Below, piece after piece: positions 5,052 through 63,196 of a DNA stretch of 64,000 nucleotides. The DNA lies in assembly GCA_041663165.1 (NCBI GenBank), contig JBAZRF010000005.1:502-64501 (forward strand). The letters are read 5' to 3'. The notes below the pieces were generated by a model. The model was given only the letters and a program-made list of their open reading frames with translations, ran no database searches and was not told the DNA's origin. Numbering within the stretch: position 1 is the first letter of the stretch; every line of letters begins with the position of its first letter. The DNA comes from Minisyncoccota bacterium. GTDB taxonomy: Bacteria > Patescibacteriota > Minisyncoccia > Phycocordibacterales > XYD1-FULL-46-19. The position numbers and the translations under genes are program-made.

Positions 5052-5352
5052 AGCTGGCCAGTAGGCAATTGCTCTGTATCGCAAGATATGGGGAGGAAAG
5101 TCCGAACACTCCTCTGTTTCGGCAGAGAGCATGGTAGCGGGTAACGCCCGCCTGGCGCAAGCCACGAGGTGCGAACAGAAACGACCCGGTTTAGTCCGGC
5201 TGAAACGTGCTAAATCCTTACCTGGGTGCAAGGCCGTGCCCCGAGAGAAATCGAGGGGAGTGCCGCTTGAGGCTAACAGTAATGTTGGTCCCAGATAAAT
5301 GATTGCCCTCCGCCAGTTGGCGGAACAGAATTCGGCTTATCGCTGGCCAGCT
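5052..5352 (+). ncRNA. rnpB: RNase P RNA (bacterial type A-like, compact, about 300 nt).
   Basis: The universal motif 'GGGAGGAAAGTCCGAACAC' is at 5092-5110 and 'ACAGAAACGACCCGG' follows. The 5' stretch 'agctggccag' (5052-5061) pairs with the 3' stretch 'ctggccagct' (5343-5352) to form a P1 helix. The region is GC-rich relative to flanking DNA and has no plausible ORF. Confidence 0.85.
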
Positions 5353-5359
5353 AACAAAA

Positions 5360-18669: not shown

Positions 18670-19869
18670 TTATTTGAGATTTAAATTACCATCGGCTTTG
18701 AAAGTGTTAGATTTTTGGGACTTGCCAGCCAACAAGCGCAAGCCGGCGGAGAGGGCAATCATGGTGGCGTTATCGGTTGAGTAAGATAGCTCAGGGATAA
18801 GTAATTTTAAATTATTGACGCTGGCCATTTTGCTTAAAGCCTCACGCAAGGCGGTATTAGCAATAACCCCGCCACCAGCAATAATGGTTTTGGCCTTGAA
18901 TTTTTGGCCGGCCGATAAAGTTTTAGTCACCAGCACTTCGATGGCGGCCTGTTGAAACTCGTAGGCAATCTCGGCCTTTATTTTTTCGTCAAATTTATTG
19001 GCTTGTTTTAATTTTTGCACCAAATAAAGTACTGCGGTTTTAAGACCCGAAAAAGAAAAATCAAAATCGCCAGAATGGAGCATTGGCCTGGGTAATCTGA
19101 ACTGAGAGGCCTCGCCTCTCAGTTGGGAGTTAGGGTTAACTAAGAGGCGAGGCCTCTCAGTGCTTATTGTTGCCGCTAGTTTAGAAATCTCTGGTCCGCC
19201 CGGATAGGGGAGGTCCAGGATTCGTGCCACTTTATCAAACGCTTCGCCGACTGCGTCATCGCGAGTTCGGCCGATAATTTTATATTTCAGCCAATCTTTC
19301 GATAAAACCAACTCGGTATGCCCGCCGCTAACGATTAAAGAAATGATGGGGAAGGCCACTTTTTGCGGTGTTGCGAGCGAAGCCAGGATATGTCCCTCCA
19401 GATGATTAACCGGGTAAAGTGGTTTATCCCACACCAGCGCCAACGCTTTGGCAAAATTAATACCCACCCACAGCGCCGGCTCCAAGCCTGGCCCCTTGGT
19501 GACGGCAATAGCGTCGATTTTTGGGATTTTTAATTTTGGAATTACGGCAAAAAATTGTTCCTTTAATTCGGGTTCTCGTTCTAAAATTTTATTTATCTTT
19601 TTTTCTATTTTTTCTTCAAACTTTTTCTCTTTGCCTTCTCCCTTACCGAAAGCTTCTCCTAGTGATTTAACCAAAATTGGCACCAAATTCTTGCCGTGTT
19701 CTCGTTTGGCGAGAGAAGGAACAACTCCGCCCCATTCCTGATGGATCTTAATTTGCGAGGAAATATTATGGGCAAGCACCTTAAAAACGGGCTTGGTGAG
19801 AGAGCCTTTAACGTCAACGATACTAATAGCGGTATCGTCGCAACTGGTTTCGATAGCCAAAATTTTCAT
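18670..19869 (-). CDS. tsaD: tRNA N6-adenosine threonylcarbamoyltransferase TsaD (Kae1/YgjD). It carries an in-frame insertion of about 20 aa encoded by a REP-like palindrome doublet.
   Basis: 'MKILAIETSCDDTAISIV', the 'HLEGH' metal motif, 'VSGGHTEL' and 'DFSFSGLKTAV' are present. The protein is 399 aa, against about 340 typical. The extra segment 'TERPRLLVNPNSQLRGEASQF' maps to 19101-19162. Confidence 0.85.
   Translation of the reverse strand: MKILAIETSCDDTAISIVDVKGSLTKPVFKVLAHNISSQIKIHQEWGGVVPSLAKREHGKNLVPILVKSLGEAFGKGEGKEKKFEEKIEKKINKILEREPELKEQFFAVIPKLKIPKIDAIAVTKGPGLEPALWVGINFAKALALVWDKPLYPVNHLEGHILASLATPQKVAFPIISLIVSGGHTELVLSKDWLKYKIIGRTRDDAVGEAFDKVARILDLPYPGGPEISKLAATISTERPRLLVNPNSQLRGEASQFRLPRPMLHSGDFDFSFSGLKTAVLYLVQKLKQANKFDEKIKAEIAYEFQQAAIEVLVTKTLSAGQKFKAKTIIAGGGVIANTALREALSKMASVNNLKLLIPELSYSTDNATMIALSAGLRLLAGKSQKSNTFKADGNLNLK
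19101..19162. repeat. REP-like palindromic element doublet (two inverted copies of core GAGAGGC-CTC/GAG-GCCTCTC separated by 16 nt), located inside the tsaD coding sequence.
   Basis: 'ctgagaggcctcgcctctcag' (19102-19122) and 'ctaagaggcgaggcctctcag' (19140-19160) are visible. The same core, 'ttagaggc(ctc/gag)gcctctaa', recurs at 39256-39280, 39745-39773 and 39961-39989. Confidence 0.75.
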
Positions 19870-20415: not shown

Positions 20416-21759
20416 CTACTTCAAAATTGGTTTTAGCCTTTCCCCTAATCCTCGGTAGATTCTGACAAGCAAAAACGTCAATAAGGCGATTCCGCTTGGG
20501 ATTAATGAGGTTAAAGGATTGTCAGTTACAAATTTTAGTATAAGGCCAAGGACATAAACAATCGTACCGACAATAAGGAAGGTATTAATCTCAAAAGCGC
20601 TGGGTTTAAACAAAAAAGAAATAAGAAGGGCCGCGCCAATAACTGAAATCAATGAAATAAGAGCAAAGACTGACGACAAAAAGGAAAATAAATATAAAGA
20701 GGCTCCGGCCGAAATAATTATGCCGAGGATTGTGAAGAGCCTTGTTTTTCTAATGACATTTTCCTTTTTGGTTTTTTTCATTTTCGCTACCAGAACACCA
20801 AGAGCGAAAGCGCTAGAATCGATTGTGCCCATAAAGGCGGCAATTAGAGAGATAATAAGCAATGATCCTAGCCATCCTGGCAGGGCCGCCAAAACCCCTT
20901 CGCTAAATAGATTAGAGGGGTCAGCAATAATCCCAGCAAATTTGAAGTTTATTCCCAAATAGGCAATTGCTCCGGCGACTAAGGCGAGCAGGATAAAAGC
21001 AAAAATCAGTCCTTTTTTTAGGGATTGCGCATCTTTGCTAGCGAAGATTCTTTGAAAACTCTCGGCTTGTCCTAGTAGGCTTAAAAATTGTAATAGCGCC
21101 AGACCGATGGCGAACCAAAATTGAGAAGGATCAAGAGCGGTTGGTATTTTGGCAATTGTAAAATTGACCGGGAAAATAAAAATAGTCAAGACGATTGGTA
21201 ATATCAGAAGTCCTTGAAAGATATCAGTTTTAATGGAGGCCTTAAAACCACCAAACCAGAGATAGACACAAACCACTCCCGTGGTGAGTAAGAGAGCCGG
21301 TATTTTTTCGATGTGGAGCAGGGTGGAGAAGAGGCCGGTGTTAACGAACATTTGTAAAATTAAAAAAAGTGATAGTCCGCCACATAAAATTAAGTTAACA
21401 AAGATTTTACTTAATGATCCATACTGGAGACCAAAGTAATCGCCAATCGAAAGAAGATTGTACTCCTTTTGCAAAGAAGAAAGTCGCTTTTTGTAAAAAA
21501 AGTACAGAACCACAAGGGCCATACCGGCTCCAACAAAGGCCATTAAATACCAAAAGCCATAAAGATAAGCAAAGGTAACACCCAGTACAAAATTATAACC
21601 GGTTAAGAGAGAAGCAAATGTCGTCCAAGTGGACTCGGTCGCCGTGAGATTTTTGGCGCTATTAATGTACTCATCAACGGTTTCTCGACGAGAGGATCGC
21701 CAGGTAATAATGGCCAGTATGCCTAAATACAAAATTAGATAAAATACAGTAATATTCAT
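20416..21759 (-). CDS. Sodium:solute symporter (SSS) family-like transporter.
   Basis: This is a 447-aa polytopic membrane protein (about 12 TM) with an SSS-like N-terminal region. The assignment is tentative. Confidence 0.4.
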   Translation of the reverse strand: MNITVFYLILYLGILAIITWRSSRRETVDEYINSAKNLTATESTWTTFASLLTGYNFVLGVTFAYLYGFWYLMAFVGAGMALVVLYFFYKKRLSSLQKEYNLLSIGDYFGLQYGSLSKIFVNLILCGGLSLFLILQMFVNTGLFSTLLHIEKIPALLLTTGVVCVYLWFGGFKASIKTDIFQGLLILPIVLTIFIFPVNFTIAKIPTALDPSQFWFAIGLALLQFLSLLGQAESFQRIFASKDAQSLKKGLIFAFILLALVAGAIAYLGINFKFAGIIADPSNLFSEGVLAALPGWLGSLLIISLIAAFMGTIDSSAFALGVLVAKMKKTKKENVIRKTRLFTILGIIISAGASLYLFSFLSSVFALISLISVIGAALLISFLFKPSAFEINTFLIVGTIVYVLGLILKFVTDNPLTSLIPSGIALLTFLLVRIYRGLGERLKPILK

Positions 21760-21844: not shown

Positions 21845-21875
21845 TACTAATTGACAAATTATTTGTCAATTAGTA
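21845..21875. promoter_or_regulatory. Perfect 31-bp palindrome TACTAATTGACAAAT-T-ATTTGTCAATTAGTA in a divergent promoter; candidate operator of the adjacent wHTH regulator.
   Basis: The 15-bp arms were read directly from the sequence, and each arm contains TTGACA. It lies between the minus-strand transporter and the plus-strand HTH gene. Confidence 0.5.
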
Positions 21876-39255: not shown

Positions 39256-39280
39256 CACTTAGAGGCCTCGCCTCTAAGTG
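39256..39280. repeat. REP-like palindrome (cacttagaggc-ctc-gcctctaagtg) upstream of the RAYT gene.
   Basis: An 11-bp perfect stem with a 3-nt loop. Confidence 0.7.
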
Positions 39281-39304
39281 CCAAATTTGTTAATATGCTA
39301 AGCA

Positions 39305-39961
39305 ATGTCTCAAAGAAAAGTCGCTTTTGCTATCGGAGAATATTACCACGTTTTCAATCGCGGGATTGAAGGTCGGAGTATTTTTGCCAATGATGAAGAC
39401 CTCAATCATTTTATTCAAAGTGTCGAAAAATTTAACGACAACAATGTTGTAGGAGGTTTATACATGAGCTCGTTCGATAAATACAAGAAAAAAGGGAAGA
39501 GATTAGTAAATATCATTTGTTATGCTTTCAACCCAAACCATTATCATTTTTTAATGACTCCCTTGGTCGAGAAAGGTATAGAAAATTTTATGCAACGGCT
39601 CGGTACCGGTCATACAATGTTTTTTAATCACCAGCACAAGAGGAAGGGGAGATTGTTTCAAGGTGTTTTTAAATCAGCCCATATTGATTCGAATGAGTAT
39701 TTAATGCATTTGAGTGTTTACATTAATTTAAACGACAAAGTTCACCAACTTAGAGGCGAGGCCTCTAAGTTGGCAAAAACTAGCTGGAATAGCTATGCCT
39801 CGAAAAAGAGAGACATTTTGCTTAGGGATATAAGCATAATTACCAATCAATTCAAAAATCCCAAAGAGTATAAAAAATTCGCCGAAGAAATTTTGCCAGA
39901 TATTATTGAAAGAAAACAATTACTGAAAGAGCTTGAAGCTATCATTATCGAGGAAGAATAG
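39305..39961 (+). CDS. REP-associated tyrosine transposase (RAYT; IS200-like Y1/HuH transposase family), carrying an internal in-frame REP copy.
   Basis: The N-terminal 'YYHVFNRGIEGRSIFANDEDLNHFIQ' matches RAYT 'YHVxxRGNxRQxIFxDDxDRxxFL'. The HuH motif is in 'ICYAFNPNHYHFLM'. 'GRLFQGVFKSAHIDSNEYLMHLSVYINLN' parallels 'GHLWQGRYKSxLVxxExYLLxLSRYIxLNP' and contains the catalytic Tyr. 'SWNSYAS' parallels RAYT 'WSSY'. Confidence 0.65.
   Translation: MSQRKVAFAIGEYYHVFNRGIEGRSIFANDEDLNHFIQSVEKFNDNNVVGGLYMSSFDKYKKKGKRLVNIICYAFNPNHYHFLMTPLVEKGIENFMQRLGTGHTMFFNHQHKRKGRLFQGVFKSAHIDSNEYLMHLSVYINLNDKVHQLRGEASKLAKTSWNSYASKKRDILLRDISIITNQFKNPKEYKKFAEEILPDIIERKQLLKELEAIIIEEE
39745..39773. repeat. REP-like palindrome (ccaacttagaggc-gag-gcctctaagttgg) inside the RAYT ORF; it encodes 'HQLRGEASKLA'.
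   Basis: A 13-bp perfect stem whose core is identical to the other copies. Confidence 0.7.
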
Positions 39962-39989
39962 CCACTTAGAGGCGAGGCCTCTAAGTGGC
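39961..39989. repeat. REP-like palindrome (gccacttagaggc-gag-gcctctaagtggc) immediately after the RAYT stop codon.
   Basis: A 13-bp perfect stem. Confidence 0.7.
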
Positions 39990-40030
39990 TTGCTGATGAC
40001 TTACTGATTTTAACTTGCTATAATTTTTTT

Positions 40031-40684
40031 GTGGATAAAATAATCGGTTCATTCGTCGAAGAACTTAAAAAAAGACCAGACGTTATTGGTATTATTCTTT
40101 TTGGCTCTTGGGCCAGGGGAAACAATCGGCCGGATAGTGACATCGATCTAATGGTTATTACCATTGAGGAGTTTAGGAGGACCGTTGAATATAAAGATAA
40201 TCGAGCTTTTGAAATTACTTATACGACAGAAAAATCAGCGATGGACTATTGGGAGAGTCACAAAAATGATTGTGCTGGATTGTGGGAAGTGGCAAAAATT
40301 CTCTACGATAAGGACGGAACGATAAAAAAGCTCGAAGAGTTTGCTCAAGGGATTATAAAAAAAGGGAAAAACCCGTTGGATGAAATAAAGATAGGTCATC
40401 TTAAATTTGACGCCAAGGACAGTTTAGAGGCGGTTAAGGCTCTTGCTAAAACCGAACCAGTCCTAGCTAATTTTTTATTAACGAACAAAATCTTTTGGCT
40501 GACTGAATTATTTTTTGATATCCGCCAATTGTGGGTACCGGCTCCTAAACAGAGGTTCGACAAAATAAAAGAAATTGACAAAGAGTTTTTCGATCTTCTA
40601 ACTCAGTTTTATCAAGACGGCATTGCTCTTACTGAGAAAATAAAAATTGCTGAAAAGACCATACCGATAGTTTTTAAAAGTTAG
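40031..40684 (+). CDS. Nucleotidyltransferase-domain protein (minimal Pol-beta-type NTase fused to a C-terminal helical domain; KNTase/Lnu-like architecture).
   Basis: 'GIILFGSWARGNNRPDSDIDLMVI' carries the GS...DxD NTase motif. The protein is 217 aa. Confidence 0.5.
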   Translation: MDKIIGSFVEELKKRPDVIGIILFGSWARGNNRPDSDIDLMVITIEEFRRTVEYKDNRAFEITYTTEKSAMDYWESHKNDCAGLWEVAKILYDKDGTIKKLEEFAQGIIKKGKNPLDEIKIGHLKFDAKDSLEAVKALAKTEPVLANFLLTNKIFWLTELFFDIRQLWVPAPKQRFDKIKEIDKEFFDLLTQFYQDGIALTEKIKIAEKTIPIVFKS

Positions 40685-62089: not shown

Positions 62090-62160
62090 GGGCCTATAGT
62101 TCAATGGTAGAACGATGGTCTCCAAAACCATTAATCGAGGTTCGAGTCCTCGTGGGCCCG
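62090..62160 (+). tRNA. tRNA-Trp (anticodon CCA).
   Basis: 'GGGCCTATAGTTCAATGGTAGAACGATGGTCTCCAAAACCATTAATCGAGGTTCGAGTCCTCGTGGGCCCG' has anticodon stem atggt/accat and loop CTCCAAA. Confidence 0.8.
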
Positions 62161-62302
62161 CAGTGAACGTTAGTGAACAAGAGAGGCCACGAGGACTCGA
62201 GCCAGAGGTGGGATCGGGAGGACTGGGTGTCCTCCCGTGGAGGAAATTATTCAAAACCGTGGGTTTTGAAAATCGTGAGATTCCTCGTGGGCCCGCTGTC
62301 GC

Positions 62303-63196
62303 TTAGGCTTCGACGGGTAAATCTGTCCAGAGTTTGATCCACTTAATTCGTTTGTCTCTTTTAAACCAGGTCATTTGGCGTTTGGAGTATTTAATGATCT
62401 CTTTTTCGAGTTGCTCAATCATCTTCGGCTTGGTGATTTTGCCCTGCAAAAAACGGGCGAGACAGCGGTATTCTAAACCTAATTCTTCCATTCGCTTCCA
62501 ACCCAAGCCTTGTCGGTGTAGTTTCTTAACTTCAGCTATCATCCCGTGTTCTAGCCTCTCGATTAATCTTTTATGAATTTTTTTATTTAATTCTTCTTGA
62601 TCGATCCTTATGCCGATAATTTCAAAATTATAAGGGGCTTGCCCTTCGTAGCCTTGGCGAAGAAGGGGCACCCTTCCCAATTCTTTTGCGATCTCAATTG
62701 CCCTAATCAAACGCACCGGGTTCTTGCTGTCAATTTCTCTGGCTCGTCTCGGATCTAACTTTTTTAACATCGCGAAAAGTTCGCTTGGAGGTGTCGCCTC
62801 CAAGTTGGCCCGCAGTTTTTTATCTGGCGCAACTTCCGGTAAAACCAAGTCATCGACTACCGCTTGAACATAAAAACCGGTTCCGCCGACAATAATTGGC
62901 GTATGACCGCGAGCGATAATTTCTTTAATTTTTTGCTCGGTGATTCTTTTAAAATCGGCCACCGTAAAAACCTTTTTCGGGTCAGCCACATCAAGCAGAT
63001 GATGAGGAATACCGGCCATCTCTTTTTTGGTTACCTTGCCAGTGCCAATATTTAGGCCTCTATAGACCTGCCTTGAATCAGCGCTGATAATCTCACCATT
63101 TAACTTCCTGGCGAGCTTAATTGACAAAGCCGTCTTGCCTGACGCGGTTGGGCCAACGACGACGATAATCTTTAATTTTTCCCATTTTGGAGCCAT
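62303..63196 (-). CDS. miaA: tRNA dimethylallyltransferase.
   Basis: 'IIVVVGPTASGKTALSIKLARKLNGEIISADSRQVYRGLNIGTGK' is the P-loop and the MiaA N-terminal signature. Confidence 0.85.
   Translation of the reverse strand: MAPKWEKLKIIVVVGPTASGKTALSIKLARKLNGEIISADSRQVYRGLNIGTGKVTKKEMAGIPHHLLDVADPKKVFTVADFKRITEQKIKEIIARGHTPIIVGGTGFYVQAVVDDLVLPEVAPDKKLRANLEATPPSELFAMLKKLDPRRAREIDSKNPVRLIRAIEIAKELGRVPLLRQGYEGQAPYNFEIIGIRIDQEELNKKIHKRLIERLEHGMIAEVKKLHRQGLGWKRMEELGLEYRCLARFLQGKITKPKMIEQLEKEIIKYSKRQMTWFKRDKRIKWIKLWTDLPVEA

Follow-up and report, generated by a model that had tools for sequence, protein, structure and literature searches.

The subject of this study is a gene resembling those of the REP-associated tyrosine transposases (RAYTs; REP, repetitive extragenic palindrome), together with the short hairpins in and around it, found in a 64-kb stretch of the genome of a Minisyncoccota bacterium (contig JBAZRF010000005.1). 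This stretch is called here the window, and the copy counts given for the organism cover these 64 kb. The gene (39305..39961, plus strand) and its hairpins probably represent a REP/RAYT variant specific to the candidate phyla radiation (CPR), in which a resident, single-copy RAYT-type Y1 HuH enzyme is accompanied by cognate short perfect hairpins. The hairpins follow one design, with a conserved foot ACTT(G/A)G...C(T/C)AAGT, a lineage-specific apical part of 4 bp and a loop of 3 nt. A preliminary description of this DNA had proposed a REP/RAYT system, and the RAYT-type enzyme, the palindromes of its own that bracket it and a doublet in the tsaD gene agree with that proposal; the locus is nevertheless not a canonical REP/RAYT system, as it lacks the GTAG tag and the imperfect stems and apparently also the abundance and the extragenic location of classical repeats, and the protein stays below the cutoff of the curated RAYT model.

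The RAYT-like gene, its hairpins and its genomic context

The open reading frame (ORF) encodes 218 aa and contains all the motifs quoted in the preliminary description. It comprises a core of ~150 aa and a C-terminal helical extension (aa ~160–218). The HuH motif H79-Y80-H81 is located within NPNHYHF (39539..39547, plus strand), and the catalytic-Tyr helix contains the residues Y139-I-N-L-N143 (39719..39733, plus strand). An alignment of 26 sequences of the family (A1) shows that H79 and H81 of the metal-binding motif are invariant, as are N141, L142, N143 and the single tyrosine Y139 on the following helix. The residue at position Y+4 is Asn, as in RAYTs; IS200/IS608 TnpA has Gln at this position.

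Profile searches indicate the relatedness of the protein to the Y1 transposases. Pfam PF01797 (Y1_Tnp) matched the window protein with E = 2.3e-4, but the score of 21.7 bits is slightly below the gathering score of 23 bits; all 26 aligned relatives matched at E ≤ 0.01 (best 2.1e-8), and a precomputed PF01797 match is present in most database relatives. Similarly, the best-matching NCBIfam family was REP_Tyr_transpos (NF047646), in line with the RAYT assignment of the preliminary description, but its score of 19.8 bits, far from the equivalog cutoff of 80 bits, places the protein below curated RAYT membership; the model alignment ends at residue 144. The same model matched 24 of the 26 relatives, the best of them with an E-value of only 5.1e-7, and no IS200 model was found among the NCBIfam and Pfam matches of these relatives. 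Automatic annotation tags some family members as 'RayT'. The family is very large: in a profile search with clustering at 50% identity, 995 clusters matched at E ≤ 1e-30, and relaxing the threshold to E ≤ 1e-10 raised this number to 10,044.

Sequence searches of the PDB, with the family profile and with the single protein, gave zero matches even at E ≤ 10, so the link to PDB structures comes from the fold comparison alone. The AlphaFold model (predicted local distance difference test, pLDDT, 76.4) places helix 132–146 at the catalytic-Tyr helix, and the top PDB match of this model in Foldseek was 4er8_A, the Escherichia coli RAYT with a REP hairpin (E = 8.8e-5, template-modelling (TM) score 0.60, probability 1.00), followed by the structures of IS608, ISDra2 and IS200 TnpA. 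The HuH alpha/beta fold is thus present in the predicted structure, and the sequence features identify the protein as a Y1 HuH enzyme of the RAYT type, for which catalysis is predicted.

Palindromes of one family, ACTTAGAGGC-NNN-GCCTCTAAGT, occupy three sites at this gene: upstream of it, inside the ORF and over the stop codon. Hairpin U (CACTTAGAGGC-CTC-GCCTCTAAGTG, 39256..39280) has a perfect stem of 11 bp and ends 25 nt 5' of the start codon. Hairpin I2 (CCAACTTAGAGGC-GAG-GCCTCTAAGTTGG, 39745..39773) has a stem of 13 bp inside the ORF, starts nine residues past the catalytic Tyr139 and is translated in frame as the peptide Q148-L-R-G-E-A-S-K-L156. Hairpin D (AGCCACTTAGAGGC-GAG-GCCTCTAAGTGGCT, 39960..39990) has a stem of 14 bp, which overlaps the TAG stop codon at 39959–39961. 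The same stem-loop does stand on both sides of the gene, as had been noted before. Folded as single-stranded DNA, U, I2 and D reach −10.9, −14.1 and −15.9 kcal/mol, respectively, with z-scores of about −7 (−7.0 for U). The pattern CTTAGAGGCNNNGCCTCTAAG occurs five times in the window with up to two mismatches, compared with zero occurrences in each of 100 shuffles.

Hairpin D was also considered as an intrinsic terminator of the RAYT-like gene, and this was rejected as there is no T-run on the plus strand; no convincing plus-strand promoter was found between U and the start codon. A nucleotidyltransferase gene of the NTP_transf_2 type (40031–40684) begins 41 nt past hairpin D; locus L116, although syntenic in other respects, lacks it, which points to an insertion or deletion directly beside this hairpin.

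RAYTs are characterised as single-copy, chromosomal and vertically inherited genes (PMC5581495). The RAYT-like gene of the window likewise appears to behave as a resident, single-copy, vertically transmitted gene rather than as an insertion sequence. Its 78%-identical homologue has the same neighbours, the genes of an S1-domain protein and of a Lactamase_B_3 protein (orthologues 87.5% and 88.5% identical), with the RAYT itself 80% identical to that syntenic lineage in a tblastn alignment. Moreover, one identical protein is encoded on 24 contigs from many samples, always in a single genomic context. Neither the synteny nor these 24 contigs revealed several near-identical gene copies in different contexts, the behaviour by which IS200/IS605 elements are recognised. 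No relatives were found on the viral contigs of IMG/VR, and on this ground and that of synteny both a rolling-circle Rep protein and a phage or plasmid element were rejected. The 75%-identical homologue P0003 is located in a different genomic context, so relocation does occur over longer time scales. A few metagenome-assembled genomes (MAGs) carry two diverged paralogues; those of loci L014 and L019, from one MAG, have different hairpins and are hence not recent copies.

These observations bear on the explanation of the locus as an autonomous IS200-like insertion sequence, with U and D as its ends and a unit of ~735 bp transposing whole; solo hairpins would then be end remnants or miniature inverted-repeat transposable elements. 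The locus does share with IS200/IS605 TnpA elements (IS608, ISDra2) the fold, the expected chemistry, the hairpins near both gene ends (10–40 nt from the ends of the ORF) and the compact, IS200-like size of ~0.7 kb, and both the different context of P0003 and the MAGs with two paralogues would be expected from an element that moves. It differs from them in the identical perfect palindromes at its ends, in the copies inside the ORF, in the Asn instead of Gln at Y+4 and in the absence of multi-copy, multi-context behaviour, as witnessed by the single context of the 24 contigs, the synteny retained next to flanking orthologues that are 87–88% identical, and the distinct hairpins of the paralogues in one MAG. 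The best NCBIfam match being the RAYT and not the IS200 model, and the lack of relatives on viral contigs, point in the same direction. Among the alternatives considered, the data weigh most strongly against the IS200-like element, which is very improbable.

Hairpins at homologous loci and their constraint

The 80 best genomic loci with homologues of the RAYT-like gene, all from CPR-type MAGs (CPR/Patescibacteria; GTDB loci), were scanned for perfect stems of at least 8 bp with loops of 3–5 nt. Such hairpins have a density of 2.99 per kb within the gene and its immediate surroundings and of 0.41 per kb over the other 1.09 Mb, an enrichment of more than 7-fold at one gene family, seen in lineages throughout the CPR. 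Their positions at the gene form four tight classes: upstream, at −60..−1 (the class of U, filled in most of the loci); I1, at nt 150–240 (aa ~60); I2, at nt 420–510, directly following the catalytic-Tyr helix; and downstream, at nt 630–720 (the class of D, which is conserved). At least one hairpin is present in 78 of the 80 loci and all four in 15; most of the loci, like the window, have hairpins on both sides of the gene.

The foot of the stem is ACTTGG in 85 hairpins and ACTTAG in 14. The loop and the apical 4 bp vary strongly (72 different 8-nt cores were counted in 183 hairpins), and the orientation of the loop flips freely. Two hairpins share the same 8-nt core in 65% of the pairs taken within a locus versus 2.1% of those taken between loci; this supports the co-evolution of the gene and the hairpin element, which the preliminary description had suggested. 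Even the paralogues L014 and L019, from one MAG (JBAQWN01), have their own variants, ACTTGGCGGT versus ACTTGGGGGT, at all flanking and internal sites. The presence of the same fast-evolving apical sequence at four sites of a locus suggests copying between sites, beyond what point mutation and selection would give.

Known RAYT hairpins have the tetranucleotide GTAG or GTGG (or CGTC) at the 5' foot (PMC6006769, PMC3733652). The hairpins of the present family have no such tag; their foot consensus is ACTT(G/A)G, and an alignment of 158 of them showed no conserved tag beyond the stem. At three loci (L092, L102 and L107; samples Ga0075122 / Ga0075116), the repeated unit consists of a hairpin and a 15-nt flank (TTAGGTTGTAAAATAA), with two copies downstream of the RAYT gene and one on another contig.

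Perhaps the hairpins spread independently of the protein, by the action of another enzyme, by template switching or by gene conversion between palindromes, and the gene is their landing place or has been domesticated, for instance for hairpin resolution. Perfect stems and freely flipping loops are what intrastrand template switching produces, the remote copies in the window are unlike the variant that flanks the RAYT-like gene, and the activity of the enzyme on these hairpins is something that we infer. Such a spread, however, is hard to reconcile with the concentration of the hairpins at four fixed places of one gene family in lineages across the CPR, with the paralogue-specific variants within one genome, and with the closest solved structure being that of an enzyme crystallised on exactly such a substrate. 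We regard the protein-independent spread as quite unlikely.

The codons and the covariation at I2 indicate that the internal hairpin is constrained as nucleic acid and not as peptide. Pairing amounts to 86.9% compared with 73.5% after shuffling in an alignment of 33 sequences (A4), a figure inflated by the choice of these sequences for a common register; double-sided changes occur in 12 of 13 pairs, and none of 500 shuffles reached the observed values. When the sequences were anchored on the Y-x-N-x-N codons only, 63% of the cells paired in the register of the window versus 30–43% in slid controls. The synonymous codons were compared in all cases, without filtering, where the peptide is L-[GRS]-x4-K: the Leu codon is CTT in 31 of 31 (22% elsewhere in the same genes) and the Lys codon is AAG in 28 of 31 (26% elsewhere). 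The amino-acid alternations in A1, namely G with S/A/T/P, R with S, H with M and D with V, are those set by complementary codons. A conserved peptide 'QLGGxASKL' as the cause of the palindrome was rejected on the basis of the synonymous-codon constraint, the compensatory changes and the use of another reading frame in other genes.

Both I1 and I2 sit in loops of variable length, where the confidence of the structural model is low. I2 is absent in about a quarter of the homologues, and its position drifts by a few residues. The frame of the internal copies is nearly constant (32/37 at I1, 29/30 at I2). Two close relatives, one of them locus L116, have an I2 with a G-T (G-U) wobble, as in L116, or with further decay, while their U and D are still perfect.

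The fixed positions and frame would also suit immobile cis- or autoregulatory elements, acting at the promoter, in the mRNA or at the 3' end and limiting a potentially harmful nuclease, with the hairpins elsewhere being unrelated or the result of local template switching. IS200 uses 5' stem-loops to limit its own expression, and a comparable function would agree with the positions kept relative to the gene across a very large family, with the nearly invariable frame of the internal copies, with the wobble tolerated at I2 in L116 and with the low copy number away from the gene. Regulation in place does not, however, account for a fast-evolving apical sequence that is the same at four sites, which calls for copying between them, nor for the same hairpins, loop included, on other contigs and in unrelated genes, where they occur as singles and doublets with presence/absence polymorphism; nor is a regulatory site expected to be missing from about a quarter of the homologues, as I2 is. 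Purely regulatory hairpins thus seem unlikely.

Copies in tsaD, miaA and other genes

The tsaD gene (18670..19869, minus strand; Pfam PF00814) hosts a doublet similar to the REPINs (REP doublets forming hairpins) at 19094..19168, in frame, where it codes for TERPRLLVNPNSQLRGEASQ. The preliminary description had reported that the stem-loop recurs in tsaD, possibly as an inverted pair, and the pair is real: one part is located at 19100–19124 (loop CTC) and the other at 19138–19164 (loop GAG, one mismatch in the stem), with opposite loops and 13 nt between them, each part having two mismatches to CTTAGAGGCNNNGCCTCTAAG. The two form a 31-nt inverted repeat, 87% complementary, with a folding energy of −25.7 kcal/mol as a single long hairpin. 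Relatives of this TsaD (75–80% identical) have in the same loop no insert (L122, L123), the same doublet (L120, where it is perfect and 61 nt long) or different inserts that resemble hairpins. The net gain in tsaD is 16–17 codons for a 61-nt doublet, and later insertions or deletions must have occurred. The doublet of the window is of the ACTGAG variant, as is that of L120, whereas the RAYT hairpins of the window are of the ACTTAG variant. The alignment of TsaD sequences (A2) contains three further sites with variable inserts within the clade, at columns 20–45, 95–125 and 210–250, and the peptides at these sites in relatives (SAQGRPTLSGK and PRLRGAST, for example) resemble products of additional hairpin insertions.

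A sixth copy, which is more diverged and was overlooked in the preliminary description, is located in miaA (62303..63196, minus strand). This relic or variant hairpin, CTTGGAGG-TGTCG-CCTCCAAG (62782..62806), has a stem of 8 bp and codes in frame for NLEATPPSE. The orthologous MiaA codons of the metagenome locus L101 contain a perfect hairpin of the ACTTAGAGGC type, ACTTAGAGGCCTCGCCTCTAAGT; the two genes thus have different hairpin variants at the same codons, without a net change of length relative to the Pfam IPPT model. Altogether, two or three diverged copies are present in the window away from the RAYT-like gene. Hairpins of the family type number 30 in 1.08 Mb of the 80 loci away from the gene (~1 per 36 kb), and 8 of the 30 lie within open frames that are 200 aa or longer.

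The metagenome scan with the pattern ACTTAGAGGC-N3-GCCTCTAAGT recovered 35 loci (the window's own genome, without nucleotide similarity, was not among them), and a RAYT homologue is nearby in only six. About 13 of the loci without a nearby RAYT have the hairpin inside open frames of 330–673 aa, in two stop-free frames. Seven hosts were recognised by Pfam domains on both sides of the hairpin: LigA, MnmA, PheT, GuaA, UvrA, MiaA and HolB; with TsaD, these are the housekeeping genes containing in-frame hairpins, and in PheT a copy is present at the same site in two organisms. Palindromes of this family thus sit in protein-coding genes without breaking the frame. The different variants held by the same sites in different lineages again suggest copying between sites.

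In a pair of sister samples, 11 copies sharing the loop TCA/TGA of the RAYT locus L086 occur on nine other contigs, possibly from different genomes, abutting doublets included. Further doublets were found at L096, L109 and L115; singles are at least as common.

Other features of the window include the 3' part of the tRNA-Trp gene, which has a 17-nt inverted copy (94%; 62139–62155 / 62187–62203) 31 nt downstream of the tRNA gene, followed by two short hairpins (62215–62237 and 62250–62270). A perfect 15+1+15 palindrome, TACTAATTGACAAAT-T-ATTTGTCAATTAGTA (21845–21875), is located just past the 5' end of the minus-strand ORF 20416..21759; its sequence is unrelated to the RAYT hairpins. The window also contains a class A bacterial RNase P RNA (5053–5355, 140.5 bits) and 13 scattered tRNA genes, which are ordinary housekeeping content.

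Proposed mechanism and relation to known systems

The following course of events can be suggested for the CPR-specific REP/RAYT variant. Hairpins would extrude in single-stranded DNA, for example at the replication fork, and would be bound by the RAYT-like enzyme, which would cleave and rejoin the DNA at the conserved foot by means of a metal ion and His79/His81, with Tyr139 joined to the DNA in a 5'-phosphotyrosyl link. Hairpins or doublets would thereby be copied or exchanged between sites, and cleavage and rejoining at the foot would also account for the doublets and the loop flips. With a mainly cis-acting enzyme, the hairpins that flank its gene or lie within it would be continually homogenised, which would produce the concerted evolution observed within each locus. 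CPR genomes are almost devoid of intergenic space, which would explain why few copies survive elsewhere; many of the remote copies lie in frame, in what would be permissive surface loops, where they are read as L-R/G-x-x-x-S-K or L-E-A-x-P-L-S, and the loops of the transposase itself (aa ~60 and aa ~148) would be such permissive sites.

A further suggestion, possible but on balance doubtful, is that the copies inside the ORF are functional parts of the system, as protected master copies and/or as self-cleavage or autoregulatory sites. Cleavage at the ACTT foot would then swap the apical 'cassette' between occupied sites, rewriting loops of 7–9 residues at fixed positions of essential proteins (TsaD, MiaA, PheT and others) in each lineage.

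Several points weigh against the proposed REP/RAYT variant and its mechanism. The window protein is slightly below the Pfam gathering score and far below the NCBIfam RAYT cutoff, and the density of the copies away from the gene in related loci is low (~1 per 36 kb, as given above). The copies in the window outside the RAYT-like gene differ from those flanking it by at least two mismatches, and the tsaD doublet must be old, being common to a lineage with a TsaD only 72% identical and belonging to a variant unlike that of the organism's own RAYT. Comparison of the filled and empty tsaD sites revealed neither a target-site duplication nor a clean target-site signature, and beyond the stem the 158 aligned hairpins share neither a tag nor a cleavage motif. 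The homogenisation of the internal copies is not universal, since I2 has decayed in two close relatives with U and D still perfect, and the choice of the A4 sequences, mentioned above, favours pairing. Finally, catalysis and the (recent) transposition of the system are parts of the scheme that we infer.

The best-matching known enzyme, both structurally and by NCBIfam, is the E. coli RAYT (TnpA-REP, YafM), which acts with REP/BIME (bacterial interspersed mosaic element) sequences (PDB 4ER8; Messing 2012 and Ton-Hoang 2012, as described in PMC5581495). The two have in common the Y1 HuH fold, one catalytic Tyr, Asn at Y+4 and a single-copy chromosomal gene bracketed by cognate hairpins; the window protein, however, is only ~15% identical and has ~55 more C-terminal residues. 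The repeats differ as well: perfect stems of 10–14 bp with 3-nt loops and the ACTT(G/A)G foot are found here, whereas classical REPs are imperfect and have the 5' GTAG tag, and there are tens of copies at most, compared with hundreds, some of them inside coding sequences, including the ORF of the enzyme.

REPIN-RAYT systems of Pseudomonas, reportedly described by Bertels and Rainey in 2011, resemble the present one in the vertically inherited single-copy RAYT, in the lineage-specific repeat co-inherited with the gene and in the doublets of inverted hairpins that can form a single long hairpin (tsaD, L096, L109, L120). They differ in that the present copies are spaced about 36 kb apart on average, that single hairpins are as frequent as doublets, and that a large part of the copies lies within genes, in frame. 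For RAYTs of Groups 2 and 3, flanking 16-mers were found 57–140 times per replicon, and REPINs are extragenic (Bertels et al. 2017, PMC5581495).

Rickettsia palindromic elements (RPEs; reviewed in PMC10969869) are similar to the present hairpins in being palindromic repeats that lie in frame in essential genes and add short surface-loop peptides. This is a likeness of form, which does not imply homology; the units described here are of 23–61 nt and tied to a specific Y1 enzyme, and the same sites hold different variants in different lineages. RPEs are about 100–150 bp in size, and we know of no cognate transposase for them.

The searchable literature yielded no description of RAYT/REP systems in the CPR/Patescibacteria, or of in-frame palindromes in Parcubacteria. 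The HuH phylogenomics paper (PMC6006769) does not mention the CPR, and in one 2026 preprint the only mention is a K07491 hit in an archaeon.

The locus points to a very large, CPR-wide branch of the REP/RAYT type, as judged from the 995 clusters mentioned above. Nearly all descriptions of REP/RAYT systems concern Proteobacteria, where the repeats are abundant and extragenic. The features that stand out here are a short perfect hairpin repeat, of which one or two in-frame copies in the enzyme gene evolve in concert with the flanking copies, and a few dispersed copies that frequently encode loops of essential proteins. If the proposed interpretation is true, the system would offer a compact, testable enzyme-substrate pair on which to study the specificity of HuH enzymes, the co-varying hairpins and proteins forming a natural library; it would explain some of the hitherto unexplained short insertions typical of CPR proteins, and would represent a case of a repeat-transposase partnership persisting in a genome with almost no intergenic space.

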